64,000 bases of DNA from Scenedesmus sp. PABB004 (taxonomy: Eukaryota): assembly GCA_014905635.1 (NCBI GenBank), contig JABVCE010000018.1:434001-498000 (forward strand), written 5' to 3'. The notes under the pieces are model-generated. The model saw only the letters and a program-made list of their open reading frames with translations, was not told the DNA's origin and did not search any database. Shown here in pieces: positions 2,659 to 62,600 of this stretch (positions are counted from its first letter, which is position 1; each line of letters starts with the position of its first letter). The position numbers were made by a program, and so were the translations under genes.

Positions 2659-4420
2659 TCACTTGTTCACGCGGTACTTCTTGGGCACGTGCTCCGACAC
2701 GTACAGCTGGATCGCCTCCTCGATGATCTCGTGCGCCTTGTCGGCGCCCAGGATCTCGTCCACGCGCACCTCCTGCGCGCCACCAGCGCGGCAGGCGGCG
2801 CGGTCGGCCGCGCGCGCGGGCAGGCGGGGGGCGCGCCGCCGCGCCGCCCTCCCGCTGCCCCCGACGCGCACGCTGCCACGCGCCCCGCGCCCCACGCTGC
2901 ATGCCCCGCGCCCCACGCTGCATGCCCCGCGCCCCGCGCCACCACGCGCGCCGGTCCGCGCCTTGTGCTCGTTCTTCTTGTAGTCTTCGAAGAACGACCG
3001 AATCTCGGCGAGGCGGTGCGCGGGGAGCTCGGAGATGTCGTTGAAGTTTTTGAACGCCGGGTCGTGGCAGTGCACCGCGATGATCTTGTCGTCGCGCTCG
3101 CCCTGGTCCAGCATCTGCAGCACGCCGATCGGCTTGACCTGCGCGGCGCGCCGCGGCGCCGGCGGCGCGACGTCGGCGCGGCGCCGCGGGCGCGTCGGCG
3201 GCGAGCGCGGTCCGGCGCGTCGGCGCTGCTGCCGCGCGCCTGCATGAAGCTGAACGGCGCCGTCTGGCTCTGCATGACCACGAGCACGTCGAGCGGGTCG
3301 TTGTCCTGCGAGGCGGCGGCGCAGCAGCACGGCGGCGGCCGCGTGAGCGCCCGCGTGAGCGGCGCGCAGCGCGCGCAGCGGCCCGCGCAGGCGCGGCGCG
3401 CGGTCGGTGCGCGGCGCGTGCGCGGTCGGCGCGCGGTCGGCGCGCGGTCGGCGCGCGGTCGGCGCGCCTCGCAGAGCGTCTGCGGGATGAAGCCGTAGTT
3501 GTGGGGGTAGCGCACGCTGCTGGCGAGCACGCGGTCGACGTAGAGCATGCCCGTCTCCTTGTCCAGCTCGTACTTGACCTTGGAGCCCTTTGGGGTTTAG
3601 GGCGGGGGTGTGGGCGCGGCGCGGTGTGCGTGTGTTGGTGTGTGGGCGCGCGGCGGCGGTTCAGGGCGGGCGTGCGCGGGGCGGGGCGGAGGCGCGTTCG
3701 CACGCGCACGTGCGAGGAGGCGCGCCCCGCACGCGCCGCGCCTCTGCCCGCCGCGCTGCGGCGGCTCGCGCAGCCCTGCCGCCGCCGCGCCCGCGCAGCC
3801 CCGCGCGCGCGCGCGGCGGCGCGCACCGCGGGGATTTCGATGATGCAGTTGACCACCTCTGGCGCGCGCTCGCCGACGGGGACGTCGTGCCAGGGGTGGC
3901 TCGCGACGCCGCGCACGTCGACGACCTCCAGGTTGCTGTTGCTCGGCACGCGCGGCACGCCCGGCGCGCTGCTGAAGCCGCCGCCGCCGCTGAGGTTGTC
4001 GCGGCTCGGCGCGCGGTAGAGCGTGCGCGGCGGGCCGGGCTGCTGCTGCGGCGACGCCGCGCCGTTGAGCGCGGCCGCGGGCGGCGCGGGCGCGGGCGCC
4101 TCGGCCGCGGCGCACTCCTGCGCGCGGCGCGCGGCGCGCGGCGGCGGCGGCGGTGGCGCGCTCGGCGGCGGCGGCGGCACGCCCGGCGCCGGCGGCGCCG
4201 CCGGCGGCGGCTGCAGCAGTTGGCCGCGCCGCGCCGGGCCGGCGCCGCGGCGCGGCGCGGCCCCGCGCCGCCGCCGCCGGTGGCGTGGAGGTCCGGGGCG
4301 CCTCGAGCCGCCCGGGGGCGCGGCCCGCGGGCGCTGCGGGGGCGCGGCCGCGCGGGGCCAGGCGCGCGCCCCCGGCGAGGCGGTCAAGCCGGCCCGCACC
4401 TGCTCGATGACGGACTCCAT
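2659..4420 (-). CDS. Soluble inorganic pyrophosphatase, family I (5 introns)
   Basis: HPWHD...[49 protein letters not shown]...[14 protein letters not shown]...FFEDYKKNE. Confidence 0.93.
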
Positions 4421-4889
4421 GACGCCTCGCACGACGTTCAGGGGCGCCTGTGTCCGGGCCGAGCTCGCTGGCGCGCCGGGCGCTGGCGTCGGGGGCGCGC
4501 GTTTGGTGATGCGGGCGCGGGCGCGGGCCTGGCGGGCGGTGCTTGAGGCGGTGTGGGCAGCTGCGAGCTCGGGTCGAATCGAGAATTGGCGTCGCGGTTT
4601 GGGCGCAGCAGCAGGGTGCGGCTCCTTGGTGCCCGGCGCGGCACCCCGGTCCGCACACGCGCGCGCGGCGTCGCGACGACGTCCACCACGACGAGCAGGC
4701 ACTAGCGCAGGCGCGCGCAGACTAGCAGCAGCGCAGCCGGGCCCAGGGGAGCAGCTGGGCGCCACCGCGGGCCGCGTTCCGGGCGCCCCCCGCTCCCTCG
4801 CTCGACGCCCGCTGCCGGGCGCGGGCGCCGGCATGGCGCGGGCGGGGAGGCGCTGCTGAGGACGCGTGCGCGTGGCCGTCGACGACAAA

Positions 4890-6545: not shown

Positions 6546-6579
<34 letters not shown>

Positions 6580-14100: not shown

Positions 14101-17100
14101 CCGCCAGCGCGGGCGACGCGTCGGTCAGCGGGTCTGGCGGCAGGTGGGCCTGGCGGCCGCCGCGCGCCGCCGCCGCGGGCGCCTCCAGAAGGCCCCGGAA
14201 CGGGTCGTCTGCGGCGGCGCGCGCGGCACGCGTCGGCGGCGGCCCCCGCGCGGGCGGGCGGCGCACTCCCAGCGCCGCGTGCTGCGCCGCGTGCTGCGCC
14301 ACGCTGTGCTGCGCCGCACCCGCGTGCTCCAGCAGCTCCTCGTCGGGTCCCTCCGGGCCGTCGCCGCCGAGCAGCAGGTCCAGCAGCGCGCGGCCCGCGG
14401 CGCGGCGGGCGGCGGGCTCGGCGTTGAACAGGTCCTGCAGCAGCGGGACCGCGGGGCCCGACCAGAACGCCTCGCCCCCGAACTCGTCCAGCCCCTCGGC
14501 CGCACGCGCCGTCAGCGCGGCCGCGCAGTGCGCGTCGAGCGCCTGCGCCAGGCCGGGCGCGTCGCCCGCGCCGGCACCGCCGGACAATGCCGACGCGACC
14601 CAGGCGCGCCAGGGTGTGAGCGCCGCCGCGGCGGGCGGGCCGTCGCCGCGCAGGAGCGACAGCAGCAGCGCGGAGGCCCCCGGCCGCAGCGCGGGGCTGC
14701 CCAGCCCCTGCACCACGAGCGCCTCGGTGACGGCCGGCAGGAGCAGCAGCGCCCGCACGGGCTCCGCCTGCCGCCCGCCGGCCGCCGCCGCGCCGCCGAG
14801 CAGCGCCAGCAGCGCCTGCGGCACCTGCGCCTGCTCGTGCCCCAGCAGGCGCACGAGCAGCGAGTCCGCCTGGAGGCGCTCCAGCTGCGCGGGGCTCGCC
14901 GCGCCCGCCAGCGCGACGAGGCCGTGCAGCACGCACTGCAGCAGGCGCGCGTCGGACCGGGGGCCGACCCCAAGGCACGGCAGAGCCGCGTCCACGCGCG
15001 CGAGCCAGCGCGGCGCGGTCTCCAGCGGCTGCGCCTCCAGCTGCGCCAGCAGGCCGGCCGCCGCCTCGCCCGCCGCCGACGCGCCATGGACGCGCGCCGC
15101 CGCCGCGAGCGCCTCCAGCGCGGCGGGGCGCAGGCGCTGCAGCAGGCGCTCCGCGGCGGGGCGCAGCTCCGGCATCAGCAGCGCGACGGCCTCGTCGCAC
15201 GCCGCCGCCGCGGCCGCGTCAGCCAGCGAGGGCGGCACGACCGCGCTGCTGCACCAGGCCGCCGGCACGGCATTGATGAGCCTGTCGGGGCGGGGGCAGG
15301 GTCAGCAAGGACGGACAGCAGGGCTCTCTGCGCTGCGCGCCGCTGGCGCCGGCTCACCGCAGCGACAGCAGCAGCAGGTTGAGGCTCTGCGTGTCCCAGC
15401 AGCATGGCCCCGCGGCCGCGCCGGCGCCGCCCGCAACGACGGTGGACGCCGCCGGCGCGGCGTCCTCCAGGCCCGCCGCGGCCGCCAGCACAACTGAGGC
15501 GGCGTCGCCGGCCACGAGGCCGCCCGCCGCCGCCGCCGCAGCGCCGGGGCTGCCCGACAGCGCGGCCGCAAGCGCAGCCGCCCTGTCGCCGGCGGCAACT
15601 GCCGCGGCGGACGCGAGCGCGCGCCCCAGCGCCGCCAGCAGGCCGCGCCACACCGCCTGCAGCGCCGCCTCCGCCGCGGGCTGGCCGCCGCCGTCGCCGT
15701 TGCTGGCGCCGCCCTCCTCGAGCTCCGCCAGCGGCGCGACCAGCAGCGGCAGCGCCGCCTCCAGCAGCGGCAGCAGCTCGAAGTGGCGCTCGGGCTGGCT
15801 CAGCAGCTCCGCTGCCTGGCGGCGGCGTGGGCGGCGCGCGCGGGGGCGGCGTGAGCGGGCGGCATGAGTGGGTGGGCGGCGCGCGGTGCTCTGCTTGGCT
15901 CCTGCACGCGCACCCCCCGCGCGCACCTGCAGGCAGATGCTGATGACGGCTGCCGTCACGTCCACGCGCTGCGCCTCGTCGTCGCCGCAGGCCAGGCCAG
16001 CCCACGCCGCCTCGGGCCCCGCGTCCGGGAGCGGCAGCTGCGGGTAGGTGATGGGGCAGCTGGGGTCAAACATCGCGGCCCGCGCCGCCGCGAGCGCGGC
16101 CGCCGCGGCGCCGCCGCCCGGCGCGAGCCGCGCCGCGGCCAGCAGGCTGCCGGCGCCGCTGCTGCCGGGCCGCGCCACGCCGGGCGGGCGCCACGCCGCA
16201 AGAGCGCCGGCGGCCGCGTCGCCTCCGTCGCCGCCGGGCAGCATGCCCGCCGCCGCCGCGGCCGCCTCGCTGGCGCGCGCGTCGCCAAACTCGGAGCGCG
16301 CGAGCTCGGGGTGGGCGGCCAGCGCCAGCGAGTGCTTCAGCCCCACCAGCAGCTGCAGCAGCACGCCCGACGCCGCGCGCTGCACGTCGCGGCTGGCCCG
16401 CTTGCTCGCCAGCAGCGCCAGCACGTTTGTCTGCGGGCGCGGCGGCGGCCGGCGTCGCGCGCGCGTGGGCTGCGCTGGCGCCGCCCGCGGCGCTGCCGGT
16501 CGGCGCCCCGCGCCGCAGCCGCCGCGGCCGCGCGCGCGGCGCGCACCAGCACGCTCTGCCGCGCCAGCAGCGCCTCTGCCGGCATGTCCAGCGCCGCGGC
16601 ACCGCCGAGCTCCAGCAGCGCCGGCAGCAGCAGCCGCTCGTCGTCGCTGTACTGCAGCCGCACGTTGAGCTCAAACAGCGCCTGGTCGTCCGCCGCTGAC
16701 AGCGACACCAGCGGCAGCGTGAGGTGGCCCGCCGGCGGCGGCGCGTCGCCGGGGCCGGGGCAGGGCAGCGGCGGCGCGTCGCCGCCGACGCCCGCGTCAC
16801 CGCGCTGCGCCTCCTGCTGCCGCCAGTCGACGCGCGCCCGCGCCCGCAGCAGCCGCTCGTCAAACGGCGCCGCGCCGTCGCCGGCGGCGGTGCCGGCGCC
16901 GCCCGGGCCGCCGCCCCAGCTGCCGACGAGCGAGCTGCGCACGTCGGCGCCGGCAGCGGCCGCCGGCGCTGGCTGCCCGGCCGCCCAGAAGCCGGCGGCT
17001 GCTGCCGCGCCGGCTCCGGCGCCTCGCCAGCCGCCTGGCGAGCCAGTCGAAGCCACAGACGCGCGCAGCCCGGCTGCCGACGCCACGGAGCCGCGCAGCC

Positions 17101-18037
17101 CGGCGGCCGCGCCCGGCCGCGGCGACTGCGCCGACGACCAGGCGGCCGACCCCGGGCGCGTCCCGGCCGCGCCTGGCTGCGGGCGGGCCATCGCCGGGTG
17201 CGTGGGGCCCGCGTCGCCGCGGGCGCGCGCGCGCGCGCCTGCTGCCGCCGCGGCGCCGGCCTCGGGCGCCGGCGCGAGCAGCGCGTCCACCAGCGCCTCC
17301 ACGGACGGCAGCAGCTCGTCGGGCCACACGCCAGGCGTGATGAACACGCGCGGCTGCTGCGCGGGCGGCGTGCCGTCGCCGGCGGCGCCGCCGCCCGCTG
17401 CCGCGGCCGCGGCCGCGCTGCGGCCCGTGAACGCGTGCAGCTGCTGCAGCGCGCCCAGCTCCAGCAGCGCCGTCGCCAGGCGCGGCTCGGCGGCGGCAAG
17501 CTTGCGGAGGAGCAGCAGCGCGACTGCGCTCGTCTGCATGCCGTCGCCCAAGCTCAGCAGGCCTGCGCGGCGCGGGCGGGCGCGGGCGGCGTGAGCGGCT
17601 GCCGCCGCCCGCGGCGCCCGCCAGCCGCGGCGCGCGCGGCAACTCACTGAGCAGGCCCCGGAGCACGCGCCGGTCCTGCGGGGACGAGGGGCGCGGCGCT
17701 GCCGCGTGAGGCGCCGCGGCCGCAGCGGCGGCGCGCCCACTGCTGGCGCGGCGAGCCCCCGCACCGGCCCCCTCTGATCCTCAGGCAGCTGCCCAGCTCG
17801 CACGCCCGCTGCCGGGCCCCTGCCATGCGCGGCGGCGCACCTGCAGCAGCTCCGCCGCGCCGACGAGCCCGTACTTCCATTTGAAGTCCAGGCTCTCCAG
17901 TGCGCGCGCCCTCACCTCGGGAGAGGCACTCCCTGAGCGCATGCGGGCGGGGCGGGTCAGCCGGGCCCCCCAGCGGCGAGGAGGGCCCTGGGGAGCTGGT
18001 GATGCTGCGCACCGAGCTTGTCGGCGATGTACTCCAT
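8104..18037 (-). CDS. RTTN: Rotatin (centriole/basal body ARM-repeat protein), multi-exon
   Basis: N-terminus MEYIADKL|GSASPEVRARALESLDFKWKYGLV resembles the rotatin N-terminus. C-terminus has LLALRNLAF and ALWALMWQGERVKAALRK. About 10 kb of Leu/Ala-rich helical coding sequence. Confidence 0.75.
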
Positions 18038-18437: not shown

Positions 18438-20808
18438 ATGGCGCCTGCAGCCAGCGCCAGCGCGCCCGCAGCAGCGCCCGGGCGCCAGGGCCGGGTCTGG
18501 GGCATGCTGCTCGCGGCGCGGCTGTCGATCATATCTCTGGTCAATGCACGGTTCCTGAAGTTCCGCTGGGCCCTTCTGCTGGCCGTGCTCGTCGGCGTGC
18601 TCACGCTCGGCGGCGTCGCGGTCATCGCGTGGCTGCTGGTCACTCACTGCGACAACGTCTGCGCGTCGGTGCCGCTCGCGCTGGTGCCGCGCGCGCCGGC
18701 GGGCCTCGCGTCGCGGTCGTGCGTCGGCTTCAAGACGCGCGCGCTCAGCATCTCGCCGGCGCCGCGCGACGCGAGCCGCGCGCTCTACACAGACACGCTC
18801 GGCGACACGACCGACAGCCGCCCCGACCCCGTGTGGGACGCCTTCTCCTGTTCCTCCCCCTCCGCGACGCTCGGCAAGTGCAGCTTCCAGCACAGCGCCG
18901 CGTGCGGCTTGCAGGAGTGGCTCGCCACCTTCCAGGCGCGCGGTCGCAGGGCCAGCTGCCGATCGGCAGCTGGCCTGGTCGCGACCAGGCCTCGGGGCGG
19001 CAGCCTCCGAGGGCCTCGCCTGGCTGCCGCGCAGCCAGCTGAGCTCACGCCGCGCGCGCGCGCCGCACGCGCGCAGGGCCTGGCGGCGCTGGCGGCCGTC
19101 GCGGGCGGCAGCGCCAACGTCGCGACCGCGGACTGGCCGAACGCGGCGGGCTTCTACACCTTTGCCGGCGACCTGGAGGCGCAGACGGCGGCCGTGATGG
19201 CCGCCGCTCACGGCAGCAGGCGCTTGACGCGGGCCGGCACGCAGCGGCTGCTCGCAGCTGGGGGCAACGTCACCCTGGGCGGCGAGGCCGCCACGCTGTT
19301 TGTGGCGCCGCCGTGGGCAGCCTGCTGCGACGTCACGACCGCTGGCACCAAGCTAGGCAGCTTCGCGGGGCGCAACAGCCGGTTCGTGGTGCAGCTCGCT
19401 GGGCGGCGCGGGCTGAGCCTGGAGACCGAGATGTGCACCACCACGGCCAGCAGCAGCAACACCACGGGGCGCTGCAGCTGGACCGAGCTCAGCGCGGGTG
19501 TGGCGCTGCCTGGCGGGCTGCCGCGCGGTGGCTTGCCGCTGCCGTCAGCCGCCGCACCCGGCGCCTGGCCGCACAGCGCGCGCGCCGCCGCCTGCGCGCG
19601 ACCGCAGCGCTGGTGCTGCCGCCGGTCGAATGGGTGAACCAGGAGCTGTGCGGGCCCTTTTCCTACTACTCAGCGGCGGGCGGCTTCAAGGCGCGCCGCC
19701 GCCCAGCCAGCCCGCGGCAGCACCGCACCGTGCCGCCGCGCCGCTCCGGCCGCGCGCGCGCGGCCGAGCGCCGCCGCCGTCGCTGCCGGCGCAGGTGCCG
19801 GTCGGCATGAGCGCCTCGGTCTGCCAGTTCCTGGGCGTGCGCGCCGCCCCCGGCGGCAACGCGACCGCGCCGCCCGCGCCGTACCAGATCTGCCTCAACG
19901 GCAGCATGCCAGACATCCTGGTGAGCGCCACCGGCCACGCGCCGCGCGCTGCGCGCTGCGCCTGGCATCGTGGGTCAATGCCATCTAGACTGACCGAGCG
20001 CAGCCGCCCGGACCGCCCTGGCCGCCGCGCGCCCACCCGCGCCCGCCCGCCTGCAGGTGCCGCTGGCGCCGTTCTTTGACCTCACGGGGGCCTGCCCGAC
20101 GCTGGCCAGCCCCAACGCGACCGCCGTCGCGCGCGCGCGGCCGCTCGCCGAGCAGCAGCTGGCGGCCACACTGACGCTGCTGCCGCTCGCACACGAGTTT
20201 GGCATGGCGGTGTCGGCCTTCCTGAGCCAGGCGTACGTGGACGTCGAGGCCGCGGCACAGGTGGGGGCGGCGGCGGTCGGCGGGCGGCTGACCGCCCGCC
20301 GGTCAGCGTCCAACCGCGCCGGTCTGCGGCAAACCACAAACCACAGCGCGTCACGCAGGGGCGCGACGCGATGAAGGGCGACCTCGAGGCCGCATCGTGG
20401 TGGCTGGAGAACCAGCTTTTCTGCTGCGACCGGACCTGCCCCTCCTGGCTGAGCAGCGTCGGCTCGGCGCTCGGCTACACCACGTATGTCGAGGGCGGCG
20501 TGGCGTTGGTGGTTCTGCTGGTTTACCTAACCCTCCTCTCCCCGGAGCGCCGGCGGCTGCGCAATGGGCTGCGCGGCGTGGCGGGCATCGCATTCCAGTC
20601 CTCCGCGCCGCCGTCCGAGGCCGGCGGCCGGCCGGCGGGCACCACCGCGGTGGTGCCGCTGGGCGCGGCCGAGCTCTCGTGCGACGGCGCGGGTGCTGGT
20701 TCTCGGGCCGGGTCGGAGGCCGGTGCCAAGCCGTCGTCTGCCAGGGTCTCCGGCCGGGGCCTGGCGCGGCTGCCCGGCTCGGCAGTGGTCCGGGCGTGGG
20801 CCGAGTGA
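18438..20808 (+). CDS. Uncharacterised membrane protein: two TM segments flanking a Cys-rich, N-glycosylatable loop (5 introns)
   Basis: TM1 WALLLAVLVGVLTLGGVAVIAWLLV; TM2 region SVGSALGYTTYVEGGVALVVLLVYLTLL; many Cys and NxS/T sequons; splice junctions join in frame. Confidence 0.7.
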
Positions 20809-39000: not shown

Positions 39001-40295
39001 GGGTGGGCGCACGTGCGACACCCAGACGCGCGGGCGCCGCCGCCGCGCGAGCGATCGCCCACGCGCCCCGTGCGCCGCGCGCCGCTCCGCCCGCCGCGCG
39101 CCCGGCAGGTCCAAGGACGTCATCAAGAGGTGCGGCCGCGCGCCGGGCGCCGGGCGCGCGCGGGCGGGCGCTCCGCGCCGCGGCCGTGCGGCTGCTGGCT
39201 GCAGAGCGCGCGCGCGCGCGCGCACTGCCGCGCCGACGCGCGCGCGCCGCCGCACCTGCCCATGCGTGCGCGCGGGCGCCCAGCGGCGGGGAGTGGATCA
39301 GCAGCATCAGCCTCGAGAACGCGGCCATGGGCCACGCCAAGGCGCGGCCACGCGGCGGCGCGGCGCGGCGCGGCACAAAGGCCAGGGCGGCCGGCTGAGG
39401 GGGCGCTGCAGCGGGGCGCGCGCCCGGCCCGAGCCGCCGCACGCGGCCGCTGCGCGCAGGTGCTGGAGGCGGCGGTCGTCGGCATCCCCGACCCCAAGTG
39501 GGGCGAGCGGCCGCTGCTGGTCGTCGTGCCGCGCGCCGGCGTCGCGGGTGGGCGCCGCCGCCCGTGCGGCGCCGCGCCGCGCCGCGCACGCCGCCGCGCC
39601 GAGCCACGCCCGCCCCGCCGCCGCGCCGCGCGGCGCCAGGCGACGACGCGCTGCGCGCGGAGCTTCTGGCATACGTGGTGAGGCTCGCGGCAGGGCCCGC
39701 GCGGTGCTGCGACGCCGCCGCGCCGCGCCGCCGCGCCGACGCCGCCAACGTCAACACCGCCGCCGCGCCGCCGCGCCGCCGCGCCCTATCGCCAGGCGGC
39801 CCAGCCCGGCGTCGCGCGCTACGCGGTGCCGGACGACGTGCAGTTTGTGGACGAGATCCCTCACAACAGGCGCGGCCGGCGGCGGCGGCGGCCACGGCGG
39901 CGGCTGCGGGGGCCGCGGCCGCGGCGGTCGCGCTGGCGCCGGCCCACGCCCACGCCCACGCCCACGCCCACGCCCACGCCCACGCCCACGCCCACGCCCA
40001 CGCCCACGCCCACGCCCACGCCCACGCCCACGCCCACGCCCACGCCCACGCCCACGCCCACGCCCACGCCCACGCCCACGCCCACGCCCACGCCCACGCC
40101 CACGCCCACGCCCACGCCCACGCCCACGCCCACGCCCACGCCCACGCCCACGCCCACGCCCGCCCGCCGCGGCGCGCCGCCGCCGGCGCCGACGCTCGCC
40201 GGCCCCGCCCGCCTCACAGCACGGGCAAGGTGAGTAAGCTCACGCTGCGCGCGATGTTCAAGGACTATGTGCCCCGCACGCGCGCGCGCCTGTGA
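36041..40295 (+). CDS. Acyl-CoA synthetase / acyl-activating enzyme with PTS1 (peroxisomal), about 16 introns
   Basis: [20 protein letters not shown]-loop, [36 protein letters not shown]; ends RARL*. Confidence 0.9.
39943..40158 (+). repeat. Perfect (CCCACG)36 hexanucleotide microsatellite in the last intron of the acyl-CoA synthetase
   Basis: Direct reading: 216 bp of uninterrupted CCCACG. Confidence 0.97.
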
Positions 40296-41765: not shown

Positions 41766-41796
<31 letters not shown>

Positions 41797-42682: not shown

Positions 42683-45353
<2,671 letters not shown>

Positions 45354-46379: not shown

Positions 46380-47487
46380 TTAGTCGACGTGCAGGATGAG
46401 CACCGGCTGCTTGCAGTGGTGCGCGCAATAGTTGGTGACCGACCCGACAAAGAACTCCCTGACGGCGGCGGCGCGTGCGGGCGAGTGAGCGCGGCGCGGC
46501 GCGCTGGGGGCGGGCGGTGCGGCGCCAACCGTTCAGGCAGCGGCGGGCGCCGCGGCCTGGCGTGCGCGCACTTGATGGCGCCGCGCGAGTGCTTGGCCAT
46601 GACGACCGCGACCGCGCCGACCTGCTCCGCGCGGCGGCAGACGAGTGCGCCGATGCTGTCGTTGTCGACGCAGCCTGCGCGGCGCGGCGGCCCGGGCGCT
46701 CCTGGTCGGGCCCTGGTGATGGCGCTGCAGCGCCACCCACCAGCTGCAGCTGGCGCGTGAGCGGCGTGCAGCTGGCGCGCACGTGGTCACCGGCGCGCTG
46801 CTGCTCGCGCGCGCACTCACCGCGCACAATGTCGACCTGGAACGGCACCTTGAGCGACTCCAGCCGCCTCTCAAAGCGCTCGCGGATAAAGTCCTGCGCG
46901 TGCTGCTCCTGCGGGCGGGCGGGCGCGAGCGGCGCGCCGCCGGCGCCGCAGCCGGCGGCGGCGGCGGTGGGCCGGGGCGCCGCGCGCGCGGCGGGGGGGG
47001 GCGCTCCGCGCGCGGCCGCGCGCCGCGTGGCACGGCGCGCGCGCGCCCGCGGCGGCACGCACCACCTTGCGCTTGGTCTCCTCGTCGTCCTCGATCACGC
47101 CCTCCAGGCCCTGCGCGGCGCGGCAGCAGCTCGGCGAGCGCGGGGCGCGGCGGCAGCAAGCCGCCCCGCCAGGCGCCCGCTCGCGCGCGGCGCGCCGCGG
47201 CGCGGCGCACCATGTCGGGCGTCACGACCAGGCGCCGGCTGGGGGCGATGATGTGCAGGATGTGGATGACGTCGCCTGGGCGTCCCGGCGGGGGCGGCGC
47301 GTGGGAGACGCGGCGGCGGCGTGCGGCTCGCAGCAGCGGCGAGCTGGCAGCGGCAGCGCGCGTGCCGGGGGTCCCGCCGTCCCGCCTGCAGCGCACCGCT
47401 GCGGTAGAGCTCGGAGACGGCGTACTCCAGCACCTTGTCACTGGCGGGCGACTCCTCTACAGTCAGGAGGATGGCCCGGCCCCCCAT
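46380..47487 (-). CDS. Universal stress protein A-like
   Basis: RAILLTVEES...GDVIHILHI...AVVMAKHSRGAIKEFFVGSVTNYCAHHCKQPVLILH. Confidence 0.9.
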
Positions 47488-48615
47488 CGCGCGCGCGCGT
47501 GCTGCTGGCTTCCGGCGGAGCTGCGCTTCAGACCTCCGGCGGATCACGACGCGTGGGGCGGTGCGGCGGACGGCGCTGGGCGGTCCGGGCGCTGCGGGCG
47601 TGGCGGAGGGCGGTGTCGGAACGCCGAACTGGCGGAGTCGCGCGGTGCGTTGCGGGAGACTGTTGAGGAGAGCTCGCGGGCAGCTTGGGCAGCTGCGCGG
47701 GCGGCGGCGGCGGCGTTGCGGGCGGGGCCGCTGCCGCGACGCAACGCTGTCTGTTGCAGGCCCCGCGCGCCCCTGGCACACACTCCCATGGTCAGCACAC
47801 TCCCCACGCACGCACGCTCCCGCGGCGCAAGCAAACGCAGACAGAGTCGGCCGCGCGCCCGCGCGCCCGCGCCGCGTCGGCCGGGGGCGCGCGCGCGCCT
47901 GGCGGGAAGCCCTCTCGCTCTCCCTCCCTGCTGCTGGCCCCAGCTGCTGGCCCCAGCTCCTCCTCCTCCTCCTCCTCATCCTCACCACCACCAAAGCAGA
48001 CGACGACCACGACGATGACCACCATGACTGACCACCGGGATTTTTGACGACGAACGACAGACGACAGCGGCACCACACCACCACGTGGTGCCGCGCGGCA
48101 GTGCTGCAAAGGTCAAGTGCGCCCGGACAGGCAGACGCGCGCCGCGGTGCGCCTCTGGCCCCTCAACCCCTCCACGCGCACGCGCGCCGCGCGCCCGCCG
48201 GCCAGCAGCCGGCGGTGCACGTGCGCAGAGTCCCCTCCCCTCGGTGGCGGCGCGCGCGCTCGAGCGACGCGGGCGGCGGCGGCGTGCGCGCACATGGGAT
48301 GCGCAGCCCGCCGGCCGCCCCACCCTCACGCCCGCGCGCGCCCGCGCGGCGGCGGCGCGGCCGCCCGCGGCCGCGGCGTTGGCGGCGCGCGGGCGCGCCC
48401 CGCGCCTGCCGGCCGCCGCCCGGCAGTGCACGCCCCCCTCGCACGTCGCTACTCGCTAGCAGCCCCGCGCGCTCCCGCCGCGCGCTCGCAGCGCGCCGGC
48501 GGCCCGCGCCTCTCCCCCCTCTGCGCTCCCCGGGCCGGCGCTGGCTGCGCTGCGCTCCCCCCGCCCCGCCCCGCGCCGCCCCGCCCGTCCCCGCGCCGCC
48601 CCGCGCGCGCGCGCC

Positions 48616-51600
48616 TCACGCCGCGACGGGCGCGGGCGCGCGCGTCTGCGCGCCGACTGGGATTGCGGTGAAAGCGTGGCCGCTGAGCCCGCCCGTGTCG
48701 AGGCTGACGTGCTGCATCTTGACCTTGTACGCCTCGCCCGCGGGGTGGGCACCAAACTCGACCACGTCGCCCGGCCGCAGGCCGCGCGCCTCGCCGGGCG
48801 GCAGGCGGCGGCCGTTGACCCACGTGCCGCTGCTCGCGGGCAGGTCCTGCGGCGCGGCGGCGCGCGGGGGCGCGGGCGCGGCGCGGCAGCGCGGGTGAGC
48901 CGGGCGCGCGCGGCGCGGGGGCGCGGGCGGGCGCCCTAGGCGGGCCCCCGCCTCTCCTCTCCGCTCGCTGCCGCCGCCGCCGGCGCGGCGGCGCGGCGCG
49001 CGCACCTGCACGAAGCAGTCGCCGCGCTCGTCCCGCCACACGCGCGCGTGCTCGCCCGCGGCGCCACCGCCGGCGACGAGCAGCGCCGCCGCGCGCGCGT
49101 CCGACCCCACGACCGCCGCCGGCGCGCCGGGCGCCAACACCACGCCCTTGGCCTCTGTCACGCTCGTCGCGTCGACGCTGCCGCAGCTCGGGGGCCGCTC
49201 CGTGAGCAGCAGCCAGCGCGCGTGCGCCGCGCGGCGCAGCTCGGTGTCGTCACGCATGAAGGTCGCGAACTCGGCCTCGCTGAACACCTTCGGGCGTGGA
49301 TGGTGGGTGGGTGGGTGGGTGGGTGGGTGGGTGGTGGGTGTGTGGGGGGGGGGGGGTGAGGCGGCGGCGGCGGCGAGGCGGCGGCGGTGAGGCGGCGGCG
49401 CGCGGCGCCGAGCTGCGCAGGCCCCCGCTCCCTCGGCCCCCGCTCCCTCCCTTCCTCACATCGCTCCCCGCGCCATTCCCCCCCCCCCCCCGCCGCGCAC
49501 GCGCACGCACACACACACGCGCACACACACACACACACCTTGAGCCGGTCCTCGATGCGGCAGCTGCTCGGCCGCGCGGCGGCCAGGCGGTCGTTGTTCC
49601 CGCCGAGCACCCAGTCGAGCACGGCCGGCATCGTCGCGCCGAGCACGGCGCGGCCGACGACGCGGCCGGGGTGGGGGATGTGGAGGTCGCGAATGAAGGA
49701 GAGGGGGCCGAGGCCCTCGCCGAGGTAGGCCTTGTACGTGGAGGCCATGATCGCGGCAAAGCCTGGGTTCAGGGTTCAGGGGCACGGGGGCACGGGGGTT
49801 TAAGGGGCCGGCCGGGGTTTAGCGGGCAACGGCGGGGGCGGGGCGAGGAGAGGGTGGGCGTGAGCGGGAGGGGGTGAGAGGCGGGGCGAGGGGGCGCGGG
49901 GAGCAGGGAGAGAGGGAGGGGGAGGCCGGCCGCAATCGCGGCGCGCGCGGGGACTCACGGGCCATGCCGTGGATCGCCGCCGCGCGCACGAGGCGGCTGC
50001 CCTGGTACGTGCCCCACAGCCGCCGCACGTCCAGCGCCGCCGCGTCGCCGCCGACCTGCGCGCACCCGGCGCGGCGGCGTGGGCGCCGCGCGCCGCGCGC
50101 CGCGGCCGCTGCGCGCCGCGCAGCGCGGCGGCTGCGCAGCGCGGCGCGTGCTGCCGCTGCTGGCGGCGCGCGCTGCCGGCGGGGAGCGCACCGCGGCGAG
50201 CGCGGCGGCGACGTCCTCGCCGAGCTGGAACGCGTCTTCGATCGCCATGCACCCCCCCTGGCCGAGGTTGGGCTGCATCGCGTGCGCGCTGTCGCCGAGC
50301 AGCGCGACGCGGCCGCGCGCCCAGCTGAAGATGGGCGGGCGGTCGCTGATGTCGCGGCGCAGGATGTCGGGCTCGGGCGTGGCCTTGATCAGGTCCGTCA
50401 CGTCCTCACACCTGGGGGTTCAGGGTTTTGGGAGGCGGTAGGGTTTAGGGGGGGGGAGGGGGCAGGGAAGGCAACAGGGGAGGTGGTGGGGGCGTGCGCG
50501 CGCGTTGGTGTGCGTCAGGGTCGGGCACGCTCACGCGTGCCTGAGGGTCAGGCTCACGCGTGCCTGAGGGTCAGGCTCACGCGTGCCTGAGGGTCAGGCT
50601 CACGCGTGCCTGAGGGTCAGGCACGCGTGACCCTCAGGCTCACGCGTGACCCTCAGGCTCACGCGTGCCTGACCCTCAGGCACGCGTGAGCGTGCACGAC
50701 CCTGACGCAGCAGCAGCGAGCGGCGGCGGCGACACGCACCAGTGGCCAAAGATCTCCAGCAGCCGCGCCTTGCGGCTCGCGCCGGGCGGGTCGGTGCCGC
50801 CGGGCGGCTCCTTGTGGAAGGCGTACCACTGCTGCTTGCCGCCGCCGACGTCGCTCGACACAAAGTACTGCAGCGCGCCACGTGGCGCGACGGCGGCGGC
50901 AGGACGCGGCGGGGCGCTCAGCGGCGCACGGGGCTCGGCGGCGCGCGGGGCTCGGCGGGCGCCGCTGCGGCCTGCTGCCGCGCCTGCCCGCGCCCTGCCC
51001 TCCCATGCCCCTGGCCCCGCACCCTCTGCCCCCCCCCCCCCCACACACACAAACACCGCCCCGGCACCTGTCCGTTGCCCAGGAAGACGCGGTAGCCCAC
51101 GATCTCCAGGTCTGGCGGCGTGAAGTCGCTGATGCCGGTATAGCAGGTGTAGCCGCTGTACACGGGCGACCCGCCGCCCACGAGCTCGCGCCGCACCTGC
51201 GCGGTGGGCGGGTGGGTGGGCGTGGGCGGTGTGGGCGCGTGGGTGTGAGTGGGAGGGGGGAGTGTGTGGCGAGGGGGCGGAGGCGGCGCGGGCGCAGGGG
51301 GGCGCGCGCGGGGCGGCGGCGGGCGCGCCTTGCTGTAGATGCCGTCCGCGCCGATGAGCAGGTCGGCGGTGTCGCTGCGCCCGTCCTCGAGCGACACACG
51401 CACGCCGTCGCGGCCTGCGGCGGGGGGCGCGGCGTCAGCGCTGACCGCGCCGCGAGCGCGCACGAGCACCCTCTGCCCCTCTCCCTCCCTCCCTCCGCTG
51501 CGAGCGCGCGCGCCGCCCTGCCCTCCCGCGCCCGCCGCCCCGCGCACCGGCGTGGCCGCGCGGCACCTCCTCAAAGCCCACCACGTTGGCGCTGTTCTCA

Positions 51601-52696
51601 ATCACCTCCGGCCCGCCCAGGCGCTCGACCGCGTCAGCCAGGATCTCCTGCGCGGCAGGCGGCACGCGGCAGGCGGCAGGCGTCGGCGGCGCTGCTGCTG
51701 CTGGCGCCACCGGCGCTGCTGCCACTGCCACTGCCGCCACTGCCGCCGCGACCGCGGCCGCGCGCCCGCGCCCGCGCCGCCGCGCCCGCGGCCGCGCGCC
51801 TGCAGCGTGACGCGGGAGATGACGCGCGTGACGGGGAGGCCCTTGTCCACCGCGGGGTGGAAGGTGTCAAACTTCACATACCTGACGCACGCAGCGGCGG
51901 CGGCAGCAGCGGCACAAGCCGGCGGCGGCGGCGGCCCGCGCGGGTGAGCGCAGCAGCGCGGGCGGGCGTGCTGTGCGCCGTCGGGCGCGCGGCGCCGCGC
52001 GCGGCGGCGGAGCGGCCCTGGCGCTCGCGTGCGCGCGGGCACGCGCACCAGTCGCCGGTCTCGCCGTCGCAGAGGCCGTTGATGCGGTCGCCCGTGATGC
52101 AGCCGCGCGCGAGCACCTCCTCCGCGACGCCGGCGTCGATCGCCTCCAGCGCGGCGAGCGCGTTGCTCTGCACCTGCGCGGCCGGGCGCGCGCGGTCGCG
52201 CGCGCGGTGTCGGCGCGACGCGGCGGGCGCGGCAGCGGCGGCGGCGGCGCGGCGCGGGCGCGGCGGGCGCGGCGGCGGCAGGCCGCCAGCGCCGCACCTG
52301 GATCGGCCCGCGGTACTTGCCCTCGCCGCGGATGGCCGTCAGGTCGCGCTCGTACACCTTGACGTCCACGCCGCGCTTCAGCAGCGCCACGGCGAGCACG
52401 AGGCCGCCGATGCCGGCGCCCGCGACGATGACCCGCAGCGGCGCCCGCTGCTGCGCCGCCGCGCCGCCCGCGCCGTTGCCGTTGGCGGGCGCGGTCGGCC
52501 GATCCGCCACCATGGCCGCCCGCACCAGGCGCCGCGCGCTCCGCCCGGCCGCGCGGGGCGCGGGGCGGGGCGTGGGGAGGGCCGGCAGCAGATGGCCCCC
52601 GCCCGCTGCGCGCACGTGGGTGCAGGCGCCGCGCGGGCTGGCGGCATGCCGCCTGCCGCCCAGGCGGCCGCCGCAGGGCGCGGTGCGGGCCTGCAT
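48616..52696 (-). CDS. ZEP: Zeaxanthin epoxidase (FAD monooxygenase plus FHA domain), plastid-targeted
   Basis: VAGAGIGGL, RGEGKYRGPIQ, GCITGDRINGL, LLGDSAHAMQPNLGQGGCMAIED, STYKAYLGEGLGPL; FHA motif DLPASSGTWVNG. Confidence 0.95.
50511..50709. mobile_element. Foldback/MITE-like element in a ZEP intron, with 43-bp inverted termini and internal 23-bp repeats
   Basis: Left arm TGCGTCAGGGTCGGGCACGCTCACGCGTGCCTGAGGGTCAGGC matches the reverse complement of the right end with 1 mismatch; internal unit GGGTCAGGCTCACGCGTGCCTGA. Confidence 0.6.
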
Positions 52697-52932: not shown

Positions 52933-54697
52933 TCACGCGCCGCCAACCGCCGGCACGAGCGCGGGCGGCGGCGCCGAGCCGCGCCCGTCCTTGGCCGCGG
53001 CGGCGAGGCCCTTGCGCCAGAGCTTGATGGTGCGGTCCACCTCGGCGGCGCGCGCCTGGAGCGCGGCCTCGTCCGCGCCGGCCTGCGCCGCGGCGAGCGC
53101 GTCGCACGCGCCGAGCCCCGCCAGCAGCGCGGCCTGCGCCTCGGCGTCGTCGCCCGGCGGCTGGCCCCCCTGCCGCTGCCCCTGCTGCCCCTGCTGCTGC
53201 TGCTGCATCCCCTGCTGCTCCGCCGCCGCGGCGGCGGCCTGCTCGCGGCTCGCGGCGAGCGCGCGGCGCGCGACGTGGCCGAGGAACTGCGCGCAGCTCA
53301 GCTGCACGCTGCGCAGCCCCGAGCGCAGCGCCGCCGCGGCGAGCAGGCCCGGCGGCTGCAGCAGCGGCGCCTCGGTGAGCATGAGGACGTCCAGCCCGGC
53401 GCGCGCCTTGGCGCCGCCCGCCGCGAGCCGCTCCGCGGGCGCCTCCAGCAGCGCGCCGTCGAGCAGCGCGCTGCGCGCGCCGCGCAGCTCGTCCAGCTCC
53501 TGCGCGCCGCGCCCGCGGCGGGCGGGCGGGCGGGCGGCGTCGGCGCGCGGGCCGCGCGCACGCGGCGACGCGACGCACGGCGCGGCGCGGCGCGCCTTGA
53601 GCAGGCCCGCGAGGGCGCGGTATGGCGAGTGCACGACGAGGTCGAAGCTCAGGCCCTGCAGCAGCGGGACCTCGCTGCGCAGCAGCGCGGCCGGCTCGAT
53701 GCCCATCGAGCGCGCGAGGCCCTCCGCGCTGCGGTACGCCTCCTCCACCTGCGCTGCCCACGCGCGGCGGCCGCGGCGGCGGCGGCGTCAACACTGGCGG
53801 CGGCGGCGGCTCACAGCCAGCAAGCGGGCGCGGCGTCAGCGTCGGCGTCGGCGGCGCCGGCTGGCGGGTGGTGCGCGCCTTGCAGGCGAGGTAGATGCAG
53901 GTCGGCATGATGCGGTTGGGGTCGTGCTCCAGGCAGCTCGCCTGGCTGTAGAAGCGCCGGAAGAAGGTCATGCTGCTCGCCTGTGCGGGACGGCGCGCGC
54001 AGCGCGGCGCGGCGCGGCGCGGCGCGGCGCGGCGCGGGCCCAGCAGGCGCCTGGGCGACGGCGAGCGCGCGCGCGGGCGGCAGCGCACGGGCGCAGCGCA
54101 CGGCGGGGCCCGCCGCCCGCTCCTCCGGTGCCGCCGGCCGCGCCGCGCGCACCAGGACTTTGCTGGGCAGCTGCAGCTGCTGGCAGATCGCCTTGAGCTT
54201 GACCGCATAGTACGCCGTCAGCGCCGCCTCGTCCTCGACGCTGATCGGGCAGTCCGCTGCGGCGGCGGCGGCGGCGGCGGCGCGCACCGGAGCGTGAGCG
54301 GTTGCCGGCCGCGCGCCGCAGCGGGGGCGCGCCGGCGTCGCCGCGACCGCCCGCGACCGCACCGCGCTGCTTCTTGGCGTCCGGCGCGGCGCCGTCGGCC
54401 GCCGCCACGTCGTCGGAGGACGCCCGCAGCGACTCCAGGGCCGCCTGCTGTGCCGCCGCGTGCTTCTCCCGCTGCGCGCGGCGCGCAGCAGCGTGCGCCG
54501 CCGCTCACGCGGCCGGCCCCGCGCGCGCCGGCGCGCGGCCGGCCGCCAATCGGCGCGGGCTGCGAGCTCGCGGACCGTTTCCCGTCCCAGCGCCTGCGCC
54601 GCGCCCTGGCGGCGCCCCGGCGGCGCGGTGAGGGCCGCACCAGCGTGGCCTCATCAAACAGCCACTCTCGCTTGTGGGTGGATGTGGCGAAGTTCAT
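52933..54697 (-). CDS. CYCH: Cyclin H (CAK/TFIIH)
   Basis: MNFATSTHKREWLF; FFRRFY....LEHDPNRIMPTCIYLACKVEE; LLQGLSFDLVVHSPYRAL. Confidence 0.92.
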
Positions 54698-59236: not shown

Positions 59237-59687
59237 GAGTCTGGAGGCCCCACCTGCCGGCTCGCCCATAGGCCACCACCGCCGAAGCTGAAGCCGCGCG
59301 GGCGCGCCGCCGCGCCCTGAACCCCACCGGTTGCCGCGGTTTGAAGCGGAGCCGCCCCTACGCCCACCGCCGCAGTGGCGACAGACGCACACCCCACCCG
59401 CGCCCACTGCAGCCTCCCAGCGCGGCAGCCAGCCCGAGCAGCGCGCGCCGGCGCGCAGCAGCAGGTGCGGCGCCGCGCCCTCCCCCGGACGCTGGCCGGG
59501 CCTGTGCGCGTCGCGGCGCGCCACCGACGATGCTGAAGACCTTGCGCTGCGAATCTGCCGTGCTGGGGCCCGCAGCAGCCCGCGCACGGCCCAACCGCCG
59601 CGCGCCGCTGCTGCGCCGCCTCACGCCCCCGCCCCGCGCGCCCCGCCACGCAGCCGCAGGCCCCCGCCCACCCGGAGCCCAGGAGCC

Positions 59688-62600
59688 ATGGTGAGCGCCA
59701 GCGCGGCCACGCGGCGCCGCCGCATGTGGCGGCGGCGCCGCCGCGCAGCAGCGGGCGCCAGGCTGCGGCGCGCGCGAGCGCTCCGCCGCCCGCCCGCCGC
59801 AGGCCAAGGGCAAGGCGCAGGCGCAGGCCCAGACCCAGAAGACGGCGGGCATCACGCACATCGAGAGCTCCACGCTGGTGCGGCGCCGCACGGCGCGCGG
59901 CGGGCGCGCGGTTTGCTTGCGCGCGCTGATCGGCCGTCCCCGCCCCGGCCGCCGCGCCGCAGGTGTCCGCCCTCATCCGCGTGGTGCGCGCGCCGCGGGG
60001 GCCGCCGCACCGCGCGGCTGCCCCCCTGCCCCCGGCCGGCGGGATGCATATGCGTGCGCTCCCTCGCGCTGCGGTGCCCCTCGCCCCAAACCGCCCCGTG
60101 CCGCGCACAGAGCGTGTACCACGTGTGCTGGATGCGGGGCCTCTTCCCCGAGGAGGCGTTCAGCGGCCACGACATGAGCCAGCTCGACAGTGCGTGCGCC
60201 TGGCGCGCGCCGCGCCGCGCCGCGCGCGCCGCGCAGCGGCCGCCCCTCACACACGCGCGCGCGCACGCAAGCCTGCCGCCCGCCCGCCTGCCGCTCACGC
60301 GCCTGCCGCCGCCCGCCCTGCTGCCGCTGCGGCTGCAGAGATGCACATCAAGGTGATCGCAGGGCTTGCAGGACTCGCAGGACGCGCGCGCGCGCGCGCG
60401 CACGGCGCGTGCCCGGCGGCGTCCCGCGTGCCCAGTGCCCCCTGCCGCTGCCGCCGCCGCCGCCGTCGCCGCCGCCGCCGCCGCAGCTGCTCAAGCCCTC
60501 CGAGGACGAGGAGGCCGCCACGCTGCGCAAGTGGGTCGAGGAAGGTGCGCCGCGGCGCGGCGGGGCGGGGCAGGCGCGCGCCGCGCCCCGCCGCTGCGCC
60601 CCAGCCGCCGCGCGCCACGCCGCTTCACATTCGTGCGCCGCCGCCGCGCACGCGCAGGCGTGCTGCACGCCGTGGAGCAGGGCTACCTGCGCACGATGTA
60701 CTTTGGCGTGGCGCGCGACGCCGCCGCGACGCAGCTGCTCGAGGCGCGCGGCGCGCGGCGCGCGGCGCGCGCTGGGCGGCTAGCAGGACGCACGTGCGCG
60801 CCTCGCCGGCCGCCGCCGCCGCGTGCGCCCCCTCACACTACCCCCCTCTAAACCACTCCCCCCTCTAACCCCGCACACACCCTGCCCCCTAAACCCCTGC
60901 CAGGAGTACATCTTCAGCTTCAGCTACGGCGACGACGGCGGCGTCACGCTCGAGCTCGACGCCGGCGCGGCCGGCGGCCGCGGCCGCGACCGCTTCAGCA
61001 GCGCCGACGCCAAGGCACGCCCCGCGCGGCGCGGCCGGGGCGGGGGCGCGCGGGCGCGCGGCCGCCGCCTGCCTCGCGCGCCGCCGCCGCTGGCGCGCGT
61101 GGCCGGCTCCCCGCCGCCGCCGCCGCGGCTCGCCACTGCCGCCCCGGCCGCCGCGCAGCGCAAGGCGCCGCCGGGCGTGGACGTGGTGCGCTACCAGATC
61201 GTGCGCCTCATGCGCCTGCTGGTGCAGGTCTGCCAGACGCTCGACGCGGTGCCGGACGAGGTGCGGCGCGCGCGCGCGTGCTGTGCGCCTCGCCGGCGCG
61301 CGCAGCCGCCGCCGCCCCGCACGCGGCCCAGCCCTCTCTCTCTGACCCTGCGCCCCCCTCGCCCCTCTCGCCCCCCCCCCCTCCCCCCAGCGCTTCCTGT
61401 TCATCAAGCTCACGTGCGCGGCAGCGGGCGAGGAGGAGGGGGGGGGCACGTGGCCCGCAACACGCCGCGCGGCACGCGCCCAGGGCGGCGCCCTGCAAGC
61501 CGAGCGCGCTGCTCCCCGCCACGCACGCACACACGCCCCCCCCCCCCCCCACCCACCAGGTACCACGACCACACGCCCGACAGCTACGAGCCGCCCAACT
61601 TCCACGCCGTCGCGGAGGACGGCATCGGCCACTTTGCGCGCCGCCCCTTTGCCATGTGCGCGGCACAGCTGCTGCACCTGCTGCCGCAGCGCGCTGCCGC
61701 GGCGCGCTGCTGCTGCGGCGGCGCGCTGCCGCGGGGCGCCGAGGCGCAGGGCTGACAGCCCCTGGCCGCCGCCGCCGCCGCTGCCGCGCGCGCGCCGCGC
61801 GGGGGCGGCGCAGGGACGTGGGCGCGGTCGACACGCGGCACCACACGGTGAGCCTGCGCGTGAAGAGCGTGCTGGACTCGTGCGGCGACATGGACGACGC
61901 CGCGGACGACCAGGACCAGGAGCTGGAGGGCTCGCAGCAGGCGCGCGCCGCGCGCGCGCGCTGTGCGCTGCGCTCACGCTGCGCCGCGGCGCTCACGCAG
62001 CCCCCCGCCCCTGGCTCCCCGCCTCCCTTCCCGCGCCGCAGATGTCTGGCCTCAGCGACCAAGAGATGGAGGACGCCGCGGCGCCCGGCGGCGGCTGCCC
62101 CACGCCCTGCGACGAGGGTGCGCCGCGCCGCAGCACGCCGCGCGCGCCCCGCCCCGCACAACGGCGCCGGTGCCGGGTCGGGCGCACTCGAGGCCGCGCC
62201 TGACCCGCCGCCGCCGCCGCCCCCGACCCGCCGCCGCTGCCGCCGACCGCCAGCGCACCTTGCCATGCTGGTCGCGAGCGAGCCGCAGCGCCTGCCCGCG
62301 CCCACGCAGCCGCCGCACGCCGCGGCCGACAGCCAGCTGCTCATCGAGCCCACGCTCGCGCCGCCCGGCTCCGCGGCGGGCGCCGACCACGCGGCGGGCG
62401 CCGGCGACGCCAGCGACGACGACGAGACGTGCGACACGCGCGGCGACAGCGCCGCGCCGGCGCCGCCGCCGCGCAGCGCGCAGCCGCTGCGCAGCAGCCC
62501 CAGCGCCGGCGCGAGCGGCGGCGCCGGCTATGAGCGCGTGCGCGCGTTTGTGCTGGCGCGCGCGGGCGGCACGCTGGGCTTCGTGGACCTGCTGGCCGCC

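Follow-up and report, generated by a model that had tools for sequence, protein, structure and literature searches.

GC-AG introns of the major (U2) type account for about 1% of introns in animals and plants. As PMC2490688 and PMC7072748 describe them, they carry GC at +1/+2 and AG at the 3′ end, their donors resemble AG/GCAAGT (the slash marks the splice junction), and the other donor positions lie nearer the consensus as compensation. Much higher shares of GC donors, 14-60%, are given for GC-rich algae (PMC4028052; bioRxiv 10.1101/2024.10.30.620910). In the haptophyte Emiliania huxleyi, according to PMC4028052, GC donors reach 56-60% at a genome GC content of 65%, the acceptor is AG, nine GC junctions were verified by RT-PCR and the shift was attributed to genome GC. 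In Aureococcus anophagefferens and Pelagomonas calceolata, intron-poor stramenopiles with less than one intron per gene, about 14-17% of the predicted introns are GC-AG, which was also attributed to high GC (bioRxiv 10.1101/2024.10.30.620910). The green alga Ostreococcus lucimarinus, also intron-poor, has GTGCG rather than GTRAG donors, and a matching snRNA change was suggested; the text available from PMC2483917 describes the GTGCGTG consensus without mention of a high GC-AG share.

Here we analyzed a 64-kb window (the whole stretch of DNA studied, 64,000 nucleotides) of the green alga Scenedesmus sp. PABB004. Its GC content is 75-82%, and 78.5% was reported for a strain with an identical CSN3 protein (table in PMC12571836). 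Frequent GC-AG introns are real in this window, but the deviation is of a type known from other GC-rich algae. The share, about 15-20%, is lower than that of E. huxleyi, at a GC content of about 79%, and the junctions are known from sequence alone. Compared with the pelagophytes, the window is dense in introns (about eight per gene in our models). Compared with animals and plants, the share is far above 1% and the motif is AG/GCGCG. Our literature search found no publication on GC-AG introns in strain PABB004 or in Scenedesmus, and the words "splice" and "intron" do not occur in the available text of PMC12571836.

Donor motif and share of GC-AG introns

Genes were modelled with a two-strand Viterbi gene finder whose only input at donors was the GT or GC dinucleotide, GC being charged more. 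A second run used the same models plus a self-trained position weight matrix (PWM). About 139-142 introns were predicted in the window by the PWM-free and PWM runs. Among about 139 predicted introns, 20-22 were of the GC-AG type, near 14-16%. The sequence-only reading had counted about 20 such introns among very roughly 120; its observation holds, with a predicted denominator of about 139-142. In the three genes that were checked in full (acyl-CoA synthetase, CSN3 and zeaxanthin epoxidase), GC donors occupied 8 of the 37 model junctions.

All 20 GC donors of that reading follow an exonic AG on the strand given for them, as it had claimed, with AG/GCGCG at 19 sites and AG/GCACG at one. The acceptor was CAG in all modelled introns. 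AGGCGCG is common in the window (82 copies on both strands), so the motif by itself is no proof of donor use. The PWM-free gene finder chose 31 GC donors from 27,510 GC dinucleotides, and 15 of them were claimed sites (binomial P ~4e-29 at a background rate of 96/27,510). These 15 all carry AG/GCGCG or AG/GCACG, and every pick with such a motif was a claimed site. With the PWM, all 20 sites were recovered. The accompanying claim that GT donors are mostly GTGCG rather than GTRAG was also confirmed: GTGCG was found at 75 of 107 GT donors with the PWM and at 63 of 111 without it, and GTRAG at 16 of 107 (all GTGAG; PWM run).

The context of C at +2 was restricted. An exonic AG preceded 20/20 GC donors and 32/107 GT donors (PWM run; Fisher 1e-9), and C at +4 was present in 100% of GC donors compared with 72% of GT donors. 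At these positions (-2/-1 and +4), GC donors are thus nearer the consensus than GT donors. Among donors in the AG/GTGCG or AG/GCGCG form, T (n = 22) and C (n = 21) were near parity, but this parity, like the other donor statistics, was obtained with self-trained ab initio models of one 64-kb window and is partly circular. Outside the AG context there were 75 GT donors and nine doubtful GC donors (contrast with the AG context, Fisher 4e-6); the contrast was weaker in the PWM-free run (Fisher 0.012). The non-AG GC calls at 20687, 46733 and other positions were regarded as doubtful, with GT alternatives close by. On the sense strand, 21 of 43 copies of AGGCGCG served as donors, compared with 22 of 27 copies of AGGTGCG (Fisher 0.011). 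Therefore, GC still looks like the weaker signal.

Homology and reading frame at individual introns

Of the 20 introns, 15 had external homology in support of the junction, where removal of the intron restores a conserved protein in frame, and one more had support from a paralog within the window. For the remaining four (18936, 19691, 24295 and 53595) our own gene models were the sole basis. Intron length was not divisible by 3 in 13 of the 20 cases; the other seven would stay in frame if retained. Two sites lack any GT-AG alternative that keeps the frame, and at the others the closest such alternative differs by 12 nt or more. When GC donors were forbidden, similarity to foreign homologs dropped in all four genes tested, with bit scores falling from 651 to 614 for CSN3, from 954 to 884 for zeaxanthin epoxidase (ZEP), from 815 to 678 for acyl-CoA synthetase (ACS) and from 327 to 285 for HOP1.

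The PPase and CSN3 introns are as follows.

3306..3467, minus strand: PPase intron, donor GAG/GCGCGCC
3139..3239, minus strand: PPase intron, donor CAG/GCGCGCG
2773..2961, minus strand: PPase intron, donor AAG/GCGCGGA
26130..26312, minus strand: CSN3 intron, donor CAG/GCGCGGA
25833..26062, minus strand: CSN3 intron, donor CAG/GCGCGCG, junction FMQ/DPEQYN without gaps

Against Pfam PF00719, the exon upstream of PPase 3467 matched profile positions 8-47 and the next exon started at 48. Residues 1-21 of this 22-aa exon covered positions 48-68, and the exon after the 3239 intron matched from 70. The intron 3306..3467 contains a single GT, and its nearest GT alternative deletes 48 nt; that of 3239 deletes 39 nt. 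For 2961, a read-through query against PDB 4lug_A ended the exon at chain residue 146, and a second stretch (weak, 0.6 bits) placed an intron-derived Q at 146 and the first E of the next exon at 147. All residues of the CSN3 model (432/432) match those of a deposited protein, P0065, which NCBI lists under Scenedesmus sp. PABB004 and which already implies two of the GC-AG junctions. The 26312 junction aligned without gaps to P0069, P0070, P0071, P0079 and P0081. The stretch around 25833..26062 was intronless in the genomic DNA of a distant relative (L001). Our metagenome scan found just two distant loci; in L001 a nearby intron lies 4 nt off and starts with GT.

Four introns of the acyl-CoA synthetase gene have GC donors.

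36739..36875, plus strand: donor CAG/GCGCGGC, VVLTD/RQHMP without gaps against 11 homologs
38632..38804, plus strand: donor CAG/GCGCGGC, GHLQ/VRGP without gaps against 11 homologs
39342..39459, plus strand: donor AAG/GCGCGGC, GHAK/VLEAAV without gaps
39870..40219, plus strand: last intron, donor CAG/GCGCGGC, junction without gaps against 10 of 11 homologs

The intron 39342..39459 contains no GT. The exception at 39870 is P0003, with a two-column gap before the junction. A (GCCCAC)x36 repeat lies at 39942-40157 inside this last intron. A further GC donor of the gene models, at 36955, was rejected as wrong; homologs show exons missing from the model, including a 22-nt micro-exon (37130-37151) with GT donors on its flanks. 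An apparent frameshift is also present near 36955-36975.

In the zeaxanthin epoxidase, cyclin H and HOP1/ASY1-like HORMA genes, the support varied among introns.

51648..51799, minus strand: zeaxanthin epoxidase intron, donor CAG/GCGCGCG, RVTLQ/EILAD without gaps against 11 homologs
51197..51328, minus strand: zeaxanthin epoxidase intron, donor AAG/GCGCGCC, GIYSK/VRREL without gaps against 11 homologs
53749..53878, minus strand: cyclin H intron, donor AAG/GCGCGCA
53500..53595, minus strand: cyclin H intron, donor AAG/GCGCGCC, PWM gene finder only, length divisible by 3
60744..60903, plus strand: HOP1/ASY1-like HORMA gene intron, donor GAG/GCGCGCG, TQLLE/EYIFSFSY without gaps against nine homologs
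61015..61158, plus strand: HORMA gene intron, donor AAG/GCACGCC, weaker homology support, variable-length loop
61941..62041, plus strand: HORMA gene intron, donor CAG/GCGCGCG, weaker support, variable region

No GT occurs inside 51197..51328. Upstream of cyclin H 53878, the alignment of the exon with 6z3u_A 113-145 and human cyclin H 84-114 extended to the last exon residue. The downstream read-through matched from 6z3u_A 144, with two intron-derived residues ahead of the exon, so that the exon would start at 146 if the read-through start is ungapped. At 53595, the spliced model has a loop of 36 aa, compared with 23 in human (PDB alignment). The loop at HORMA 61015 has 31 aa in the model and 24-35 in four homologs (counted by eye); with GT alternatives it would shrink to 7 or grow to 59 aa. 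At 61941, the closest homolog, P0222, was the only one to align across the junction without gaps.

The remaining introns come from gene models or a paralog. The last two below are candidates beyond the original 20.

18936..19076, plus strand: membrane-protein gene intron, donor CAG/GCGCGCG, gene finder only (both runs), length divisible by 3
19691..19794, plus strand: membrane-protein gene intron, donor AAG/GCGCGCC, PWM gene finder only
24295..24443, plus strand: intron of a gene earlier named pTAC12-like, donor CAG/GCGCGCC, both gene-finder runs
32655..32781, minus strand: intron of a gene with weak PC-esterase/SGNH leads, donor CAG/GCGCGCC, paralog
16999..17238, minus strand: candidate GC-AG intron, donor CAG/GCGCGCG, PWM gene finder only, low-complexity protein
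47457..47898, minus strand: candidate GC-AG intron, donor CAG/GCGCGCG, PWM gene finder only, many GT alternatives

At 19691 the PWM-free run picked a GC donor 4 nt off. The intron 24295..24443 has no frame-compatible GT-AG alternative, and 32655..32781 has neither a GT inside nor a GT-AG alternative. The paralogous intron at 56317-56401 has the donor CAG/GTGCGCC and follows a 175-nt exon equal in length to that of 32781; the two donors differ only in T or C at +2. The exons of the gene called pTAC12-like in the sequence-only reading had no meaningful match in PDB and none in Pfam or the atlas, which leaves this name unconfirmed. For the gene it called TBL1 (32781), the PC-esterase/SGNH family leads were weak, with scores of at most 0.80.

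Recognition of GC donors

We consider it probable, at roughly three in four from the sequence evidence, that these are genuine GC-AG introns of the major (U2-type) spliceosome, making up roughly 15-20% of the introns of the window in the nuclear genome of a green alga with about 79% GC, and that they are recognized by the ordinary U1/U6 route plus compensation, with no new mechanism. The local donor consensus would be (A/C)G/GTGCG(C/G), and the T at +2 would have been replaced by C under strong GC-biased substitution. This C may be tolerated only if pairing with the readers of the 5′ splice site is maximal at the other positions (A at -2, G at -1, G-C-G at +3 to +5). In the AG/G-GCG context, +2 would then be nearly neutral, and GC donors elsewhere would be purged. 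The exonic AG before every GC donor, present at only 32 of 107 GT donors, matches the classic compensation described where U1 is ordinary (PMC2490688).

The sequence-only reading proposed a spliceosome adapted to extreme GC pressure. Such a re-tuning, in which a changed U1 5′ end, U6 ACAGAGA box or U1-C reads G(U/C)GCG and makes GC as good as GT, seems unlikely. It would fit the GTGCG consensus in both runs and the near parity of T and C in the strong context, and the same idea was put forward for the GTGCGTG donors of Ostreococcus (PMC2483917). However, the GC donors still need the exonic AG that most GT donors lack, and sense copies of AGGCGCG are used less often than those of AGGTGCG. An Rfam search of the 64-kb window gave no matches and no snRNA. 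It is similarly doubtful that the 5′-splice-site readers co-evolved with genome composition, so that U or C at +2 hardly matters once A at -2 and G at -1 are present. One candidate would be a U1 whose 5′ end is able to pair with the C at +4. If true, donor recognition would have been re-tuned in this lineage, which would also account for the GTGCG consensus found in other green algae too.

The commonness of AGGCGCG, the seven introns divisible by 3 and wrong calls such as 36955 might suggest that the GC donors were wrongly modelled, and that nearby GT sites are the real donors or the segments are retained coding sequence. This is very improbable, considering that foreign homologs agree with the models at or next to 15 of 20 junctions, that GT alternatives cost 12 nt or more and that the GT-only models fit the homologs worse in each gene tested. 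Errors of assembly or polishing that replaced T by C at +2 in GC-rich sequence are even harder to credit. The acyl-CoA synthetase gene, with its apparent frameshift, indicates that the sequence may contain errors, but a context-driven error would be expected at GTGCG whatever the exon end, whereas C was found 21 times against 22 T after AG and in nine doubtful cases against 75 elsewhere. The coding sequence also aligns cleanly with homologs (CSN3, zeaxanthin epoxidase). As the donors are not GT, minor-spliceosome (U12-type) or other non-conventional introns might be considered, but we give this reading almost no weight: the donors are GCGCG or GCACG with CAG ends, none has the consensus U12 donor box, and they match the local GT consensus except at +2.

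With this window, a core-chlorophyte green alga joins the haptophyte and pelagophyte cases of a high GC-AG share. The rule here is that C at +2 requires a preceding exonic AG and is then near parity with T, which would make the selective cost of this C measurable under extreme GC pressure. Gene predictors that forbid or heavily penalize GC donors would get a fifth of the junctions wrong in the conserved genes of this genome.

Homology at the GC donors

The GC content was 75-82% along the entire length of the window, and the exons formed islands of lower GC (GC3 ~0.95). The sequence-only reading had reported 20 introns starting with GC instead of GT, always after exonic AG. On the strands it stated, we found AG|GCGCG at 19 of these 20 sites and AG|GCACG at the other (61015; bar, exon/intron boundary). 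The heptamer AGGCGCG is frequent, with 82 copies on both strands of the window. The motif by itself is therefore no proof, and the junctions had to be tested one by one.

Homology at GC donors (coordinate of the first intron base, strand where assigned, gene, evidence)
3467 and 3239, minus: PPase; exons cover PF00719 positions 8-47, 48-68 (22-aa exon, residues 1-21) and 70-127
2961, minus: PPase; in a read-through query, plant PPase 4lug_A is matched to residue 146, the exon end, and 147 is the next exon's first residue (second aligned stretch weak taken alone)
26312 and 26062, minus: CSN3; both GC junctions and 8/8 GT junctions gap-free against relatives
26062, minus: CSN3; L001, genomic DNA of a distant relative, has no intron and reads through
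36739, 38632, 39342 and 39870, plus: acyl-CoA synthetase (ACS); no gaps against 11 homologs, except protein P0003 at 39870
51799 and 51328, minus: zeaxanthin epoxidase (ZEP); 2 GC and 9 GT junctions agree with 11 homologs
53878, minus: cyclin H; upstream exon matched through its last residue (6z3u_A 113-145)
60744, plus: HORMA gene (HOP1/ASY1-like); no gaps against 9 homologs
61015, plus: HORMA gene; variable loop, 31 aa in the model and 24-35 aa in 4 homologs counted by eye
61941, plus: HORMA gene; agrees with the closest homolog, P0222, only
32781: PC-esterase-like gene; a paralog in the window has an equal upstream exon (175 nt), followed by an intron in the corresponding position

The claim that conserved frames call for GC donors thus gained external homology at 15 sites (13 strong, 2 moderate) and a paralog at one more. 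Homology support was not obtained for 18936 and 19691 (in a putative membrane protein), 24295 (putative pTAC12-like) or 53595. The closest proteins came from Scenedesmaceae and other Chlorophyceae. In PPase the PF00719 ranges adjoin, so the junctions at 3467 and 3239 are continuous. The 11 ACS homologs include a transcript-derived protein and bacterial enzymes, and all 12 predicted GT junctions of this gene were likewise gap-free. The CSN3 model was identical at 432 of 432 residues to P0065, which NCBI names CSN3 of Scenedesmus sp. PABB004. At 53878 the downstream read-through begins at 6z3u_A 144, two intron-derived residues early; the exon start is 146 if that start is ungapped. The loop at 61015 would be 7 or 59 aa under GT alternatives. 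The donor at 32781 is CAG|GCGCGCC and the matching donor of its paralog is CAG|GTGCGCC.

In ACS, CSN3 and ZEP, where each junction was checked, GC junctions made up 8 of 37 confirmed model junctions, or 8 of 39 when two hand-found GT introns are counted. For such a share under an expectation of 1%, binomial P = 3e-9.

Several other features were seen in these genes. Two PPase introns contain short tandem duplications in the raw sequence at 2860-2935 and 3405-3465, with units of ~21 nt and ~11 nt. ACS has a 22-nt micro-exon (37130-37151), missed by the gene finder, which codes for SGTTGRPK within the AMP-binding motif and has GT-AG introns on either side. Its last intron holds 36 copies of a (GCCCAC) hexanucleotide repeat (39942-40157). 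ACS also shows an apparent frameshift at 36940-37030, where YEQLLDGA in frame 0 is followed by frame 2 within ~30 nt of GC-rich sequence; this span is too small for an intron, and the frameshift may be an assembly indel. In the CSN3 locus of the lower-GC distant relative (L001, 1039-1440), a GT intron (GTTAGT) lies 4 nt downstream from the position of the 26312 donor. Together with the lack of an intron at 26062, this indicates that the lineages differ in intron positions. The paralogous genes at 32418-33514 and 55409-57004 (GDSM...), for which PC-esterase/SGNH leads were weak, have one intron in common. Only the 32-kb paralog carries a second intron, which follows ...ETPKQ; the 55409-57004 copy reads through.

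Gene models with and without GC donors

Gene models were built from the window only by a purpose-written two-strand Viterbi gene finder. Its first version scored a donor as GT (-1.7) or GC (-4.85) and ignored flanking bases. It predicted 142 introns, with 111 GT and 31 GC donors, and 15 of the 31 were claimed sites. These 15 were exactly the GC calls bearing AG|GC[G/A]CG, a context found at 96 of 27,510 GC dinucleotides (binomial P ~4e-29). The second version, with self-trained donor and acceptor position weight matrices (PWM), predicted 139 introns (107 GT, 32 GC) and recovered all 20 claimed donors. The earlier estimate of 20 in roughly 120 introns was thus close: 20-22 of ~139 predicted introns, ~15% in this one window.

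Among the 12 unclaimed GC calls of the PWM version, exact AG|GCGCG was found at two only, which are candidates absent from the sequence-only reading:

16999-17238, minus: predicted GC-AG intron, donor CAG|GCGCGCG
47457-47898, minus: predicted GC-AG intron, donor CAG|GCGCGCG

The call at 9997 reads AAG|GCGCC. That at 36955 was wrong, as homologs reveal two exons absent from the model there, one of them the 22-nt micro-exon at 37130-37151. Among the others, 20687 has a GT donor at a distance of 6 nt and 46733 one at 3 nt. The gene finder merged a tubulin gene with the DHHC palmitoyltransferase gene upstream of it, and it also joined CstF-64 to the PC-esterase-like gene; gene boundaries of the ab initio models are therefore unreliable. 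The tubulin gene (43163-45353; Pfam Tubulin and Tubulin_C, beta by reading of the sequence) has GT-AG introns.

As a control, every GT...AG pair keeping both exon frames open was enumerated for each claimed intron. None was found for 24295 and 32781; for the remaining introns the least change was 12 nt (51799), typically 15-80 nt. In 13 of the 20 the intron length is not divisible by 3, so retention would break the frame. When GC donors were forbidden, the total score of the trained model fell from 5237 to 4829, and the BLASTP match to a foreign homolog scored lower in all four genes compared.

BLASTP against a foreign homolog, GC donors allowed -> GT only
CSN3: 651 -> 614 bits; 2 -> 17 gap columns
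ZEP: 954 -> 884 bits; 11 -> 44 gap columns
ACS: 815 -> 678 bits; 33 -> 90 gap columns
HOP1: 327 -> 285 bits; 101 -> 160 gap columns

Donor context and the origin of GC donors

GT donors were mostly GTGCG rather than GTRAG, as had been noticed: 75 against 16 of 107 in the PWM models, the latter all GTGAG. The counts were 63 and 15 of 111 without the PWM, and 17 and 5 of 29 in ACS, CSN3 and ZEP. Exonic AG preceded 20/20 claimed GC donors versus 32/107 GT donors (Fisher 1e-9). Predicted AG|G[T/C]GCG donors had T in 22 cases and C in 21; comparatively, the remaining contexts had 75 GT and 9 doubtful GC donors (Fisher 4e-6). On the sense strand of modelled genes, 22 of 27 copies of AGGTGCG served as donors, compared with 21 of 43 copies of AGGCGCG (Fisher 0.011). 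The GC form is thus accepted yet defines a donor less well. All these statistics are partly circular because self-trained models underlie the counts, and the contrast between AG and other contexts was weaker without the PWM (Fisher 0.012).

The ordinary share of GC-AG introns is ~1-2% (PMC7072748). GC donors amount to 56-60% in Emiliania huxleyi, where RT-PCR validated 9 GC junctions (PMC4028052), and to 14-17% in Aureococcus and ~14% in Pelagomonas (bioRxiv 10.1101/2024.10.30.620910); both groups of authors explain this by genome GC content. Scenedesmus sp. PABB004 has a genome of 39.8 Mb with 78.5% GC (PMC12571836); in the accessible part of that text, 'splice' and 'intron' do not occur. No published account of the GC-AG feature for this alga was found in the literature searched on GC-AG introns in Scenedesmus or green algae and on the strain.

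The sequence-only reading attributed the frequent GC donors to an adapted spliceosome. For Ostreococcus, whose donor consensus is GTGCGTG, matching snRNA changes have been proposed (PMC2483917). Such an adaptation is not needed here, although it may have occurred. It is established that GC donors lie nearer the consensus at the remaining positions (PMC2490688). This window itself shows both the junctions and the AG rule. The best reading is that these GC-AG introns are spliced by ordinary U2-type splicing and became frequent through GC-biased substitution at the second intron base (+2). We infer this bias, which would raise the frequency of GC-AG introns, as well as the snRNA pairing: C at +2 would be tolerated solely where -2A, -1G and +3 to +5 lend full support. 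The AG rule would then be the visible signature of compensation for C at +2.
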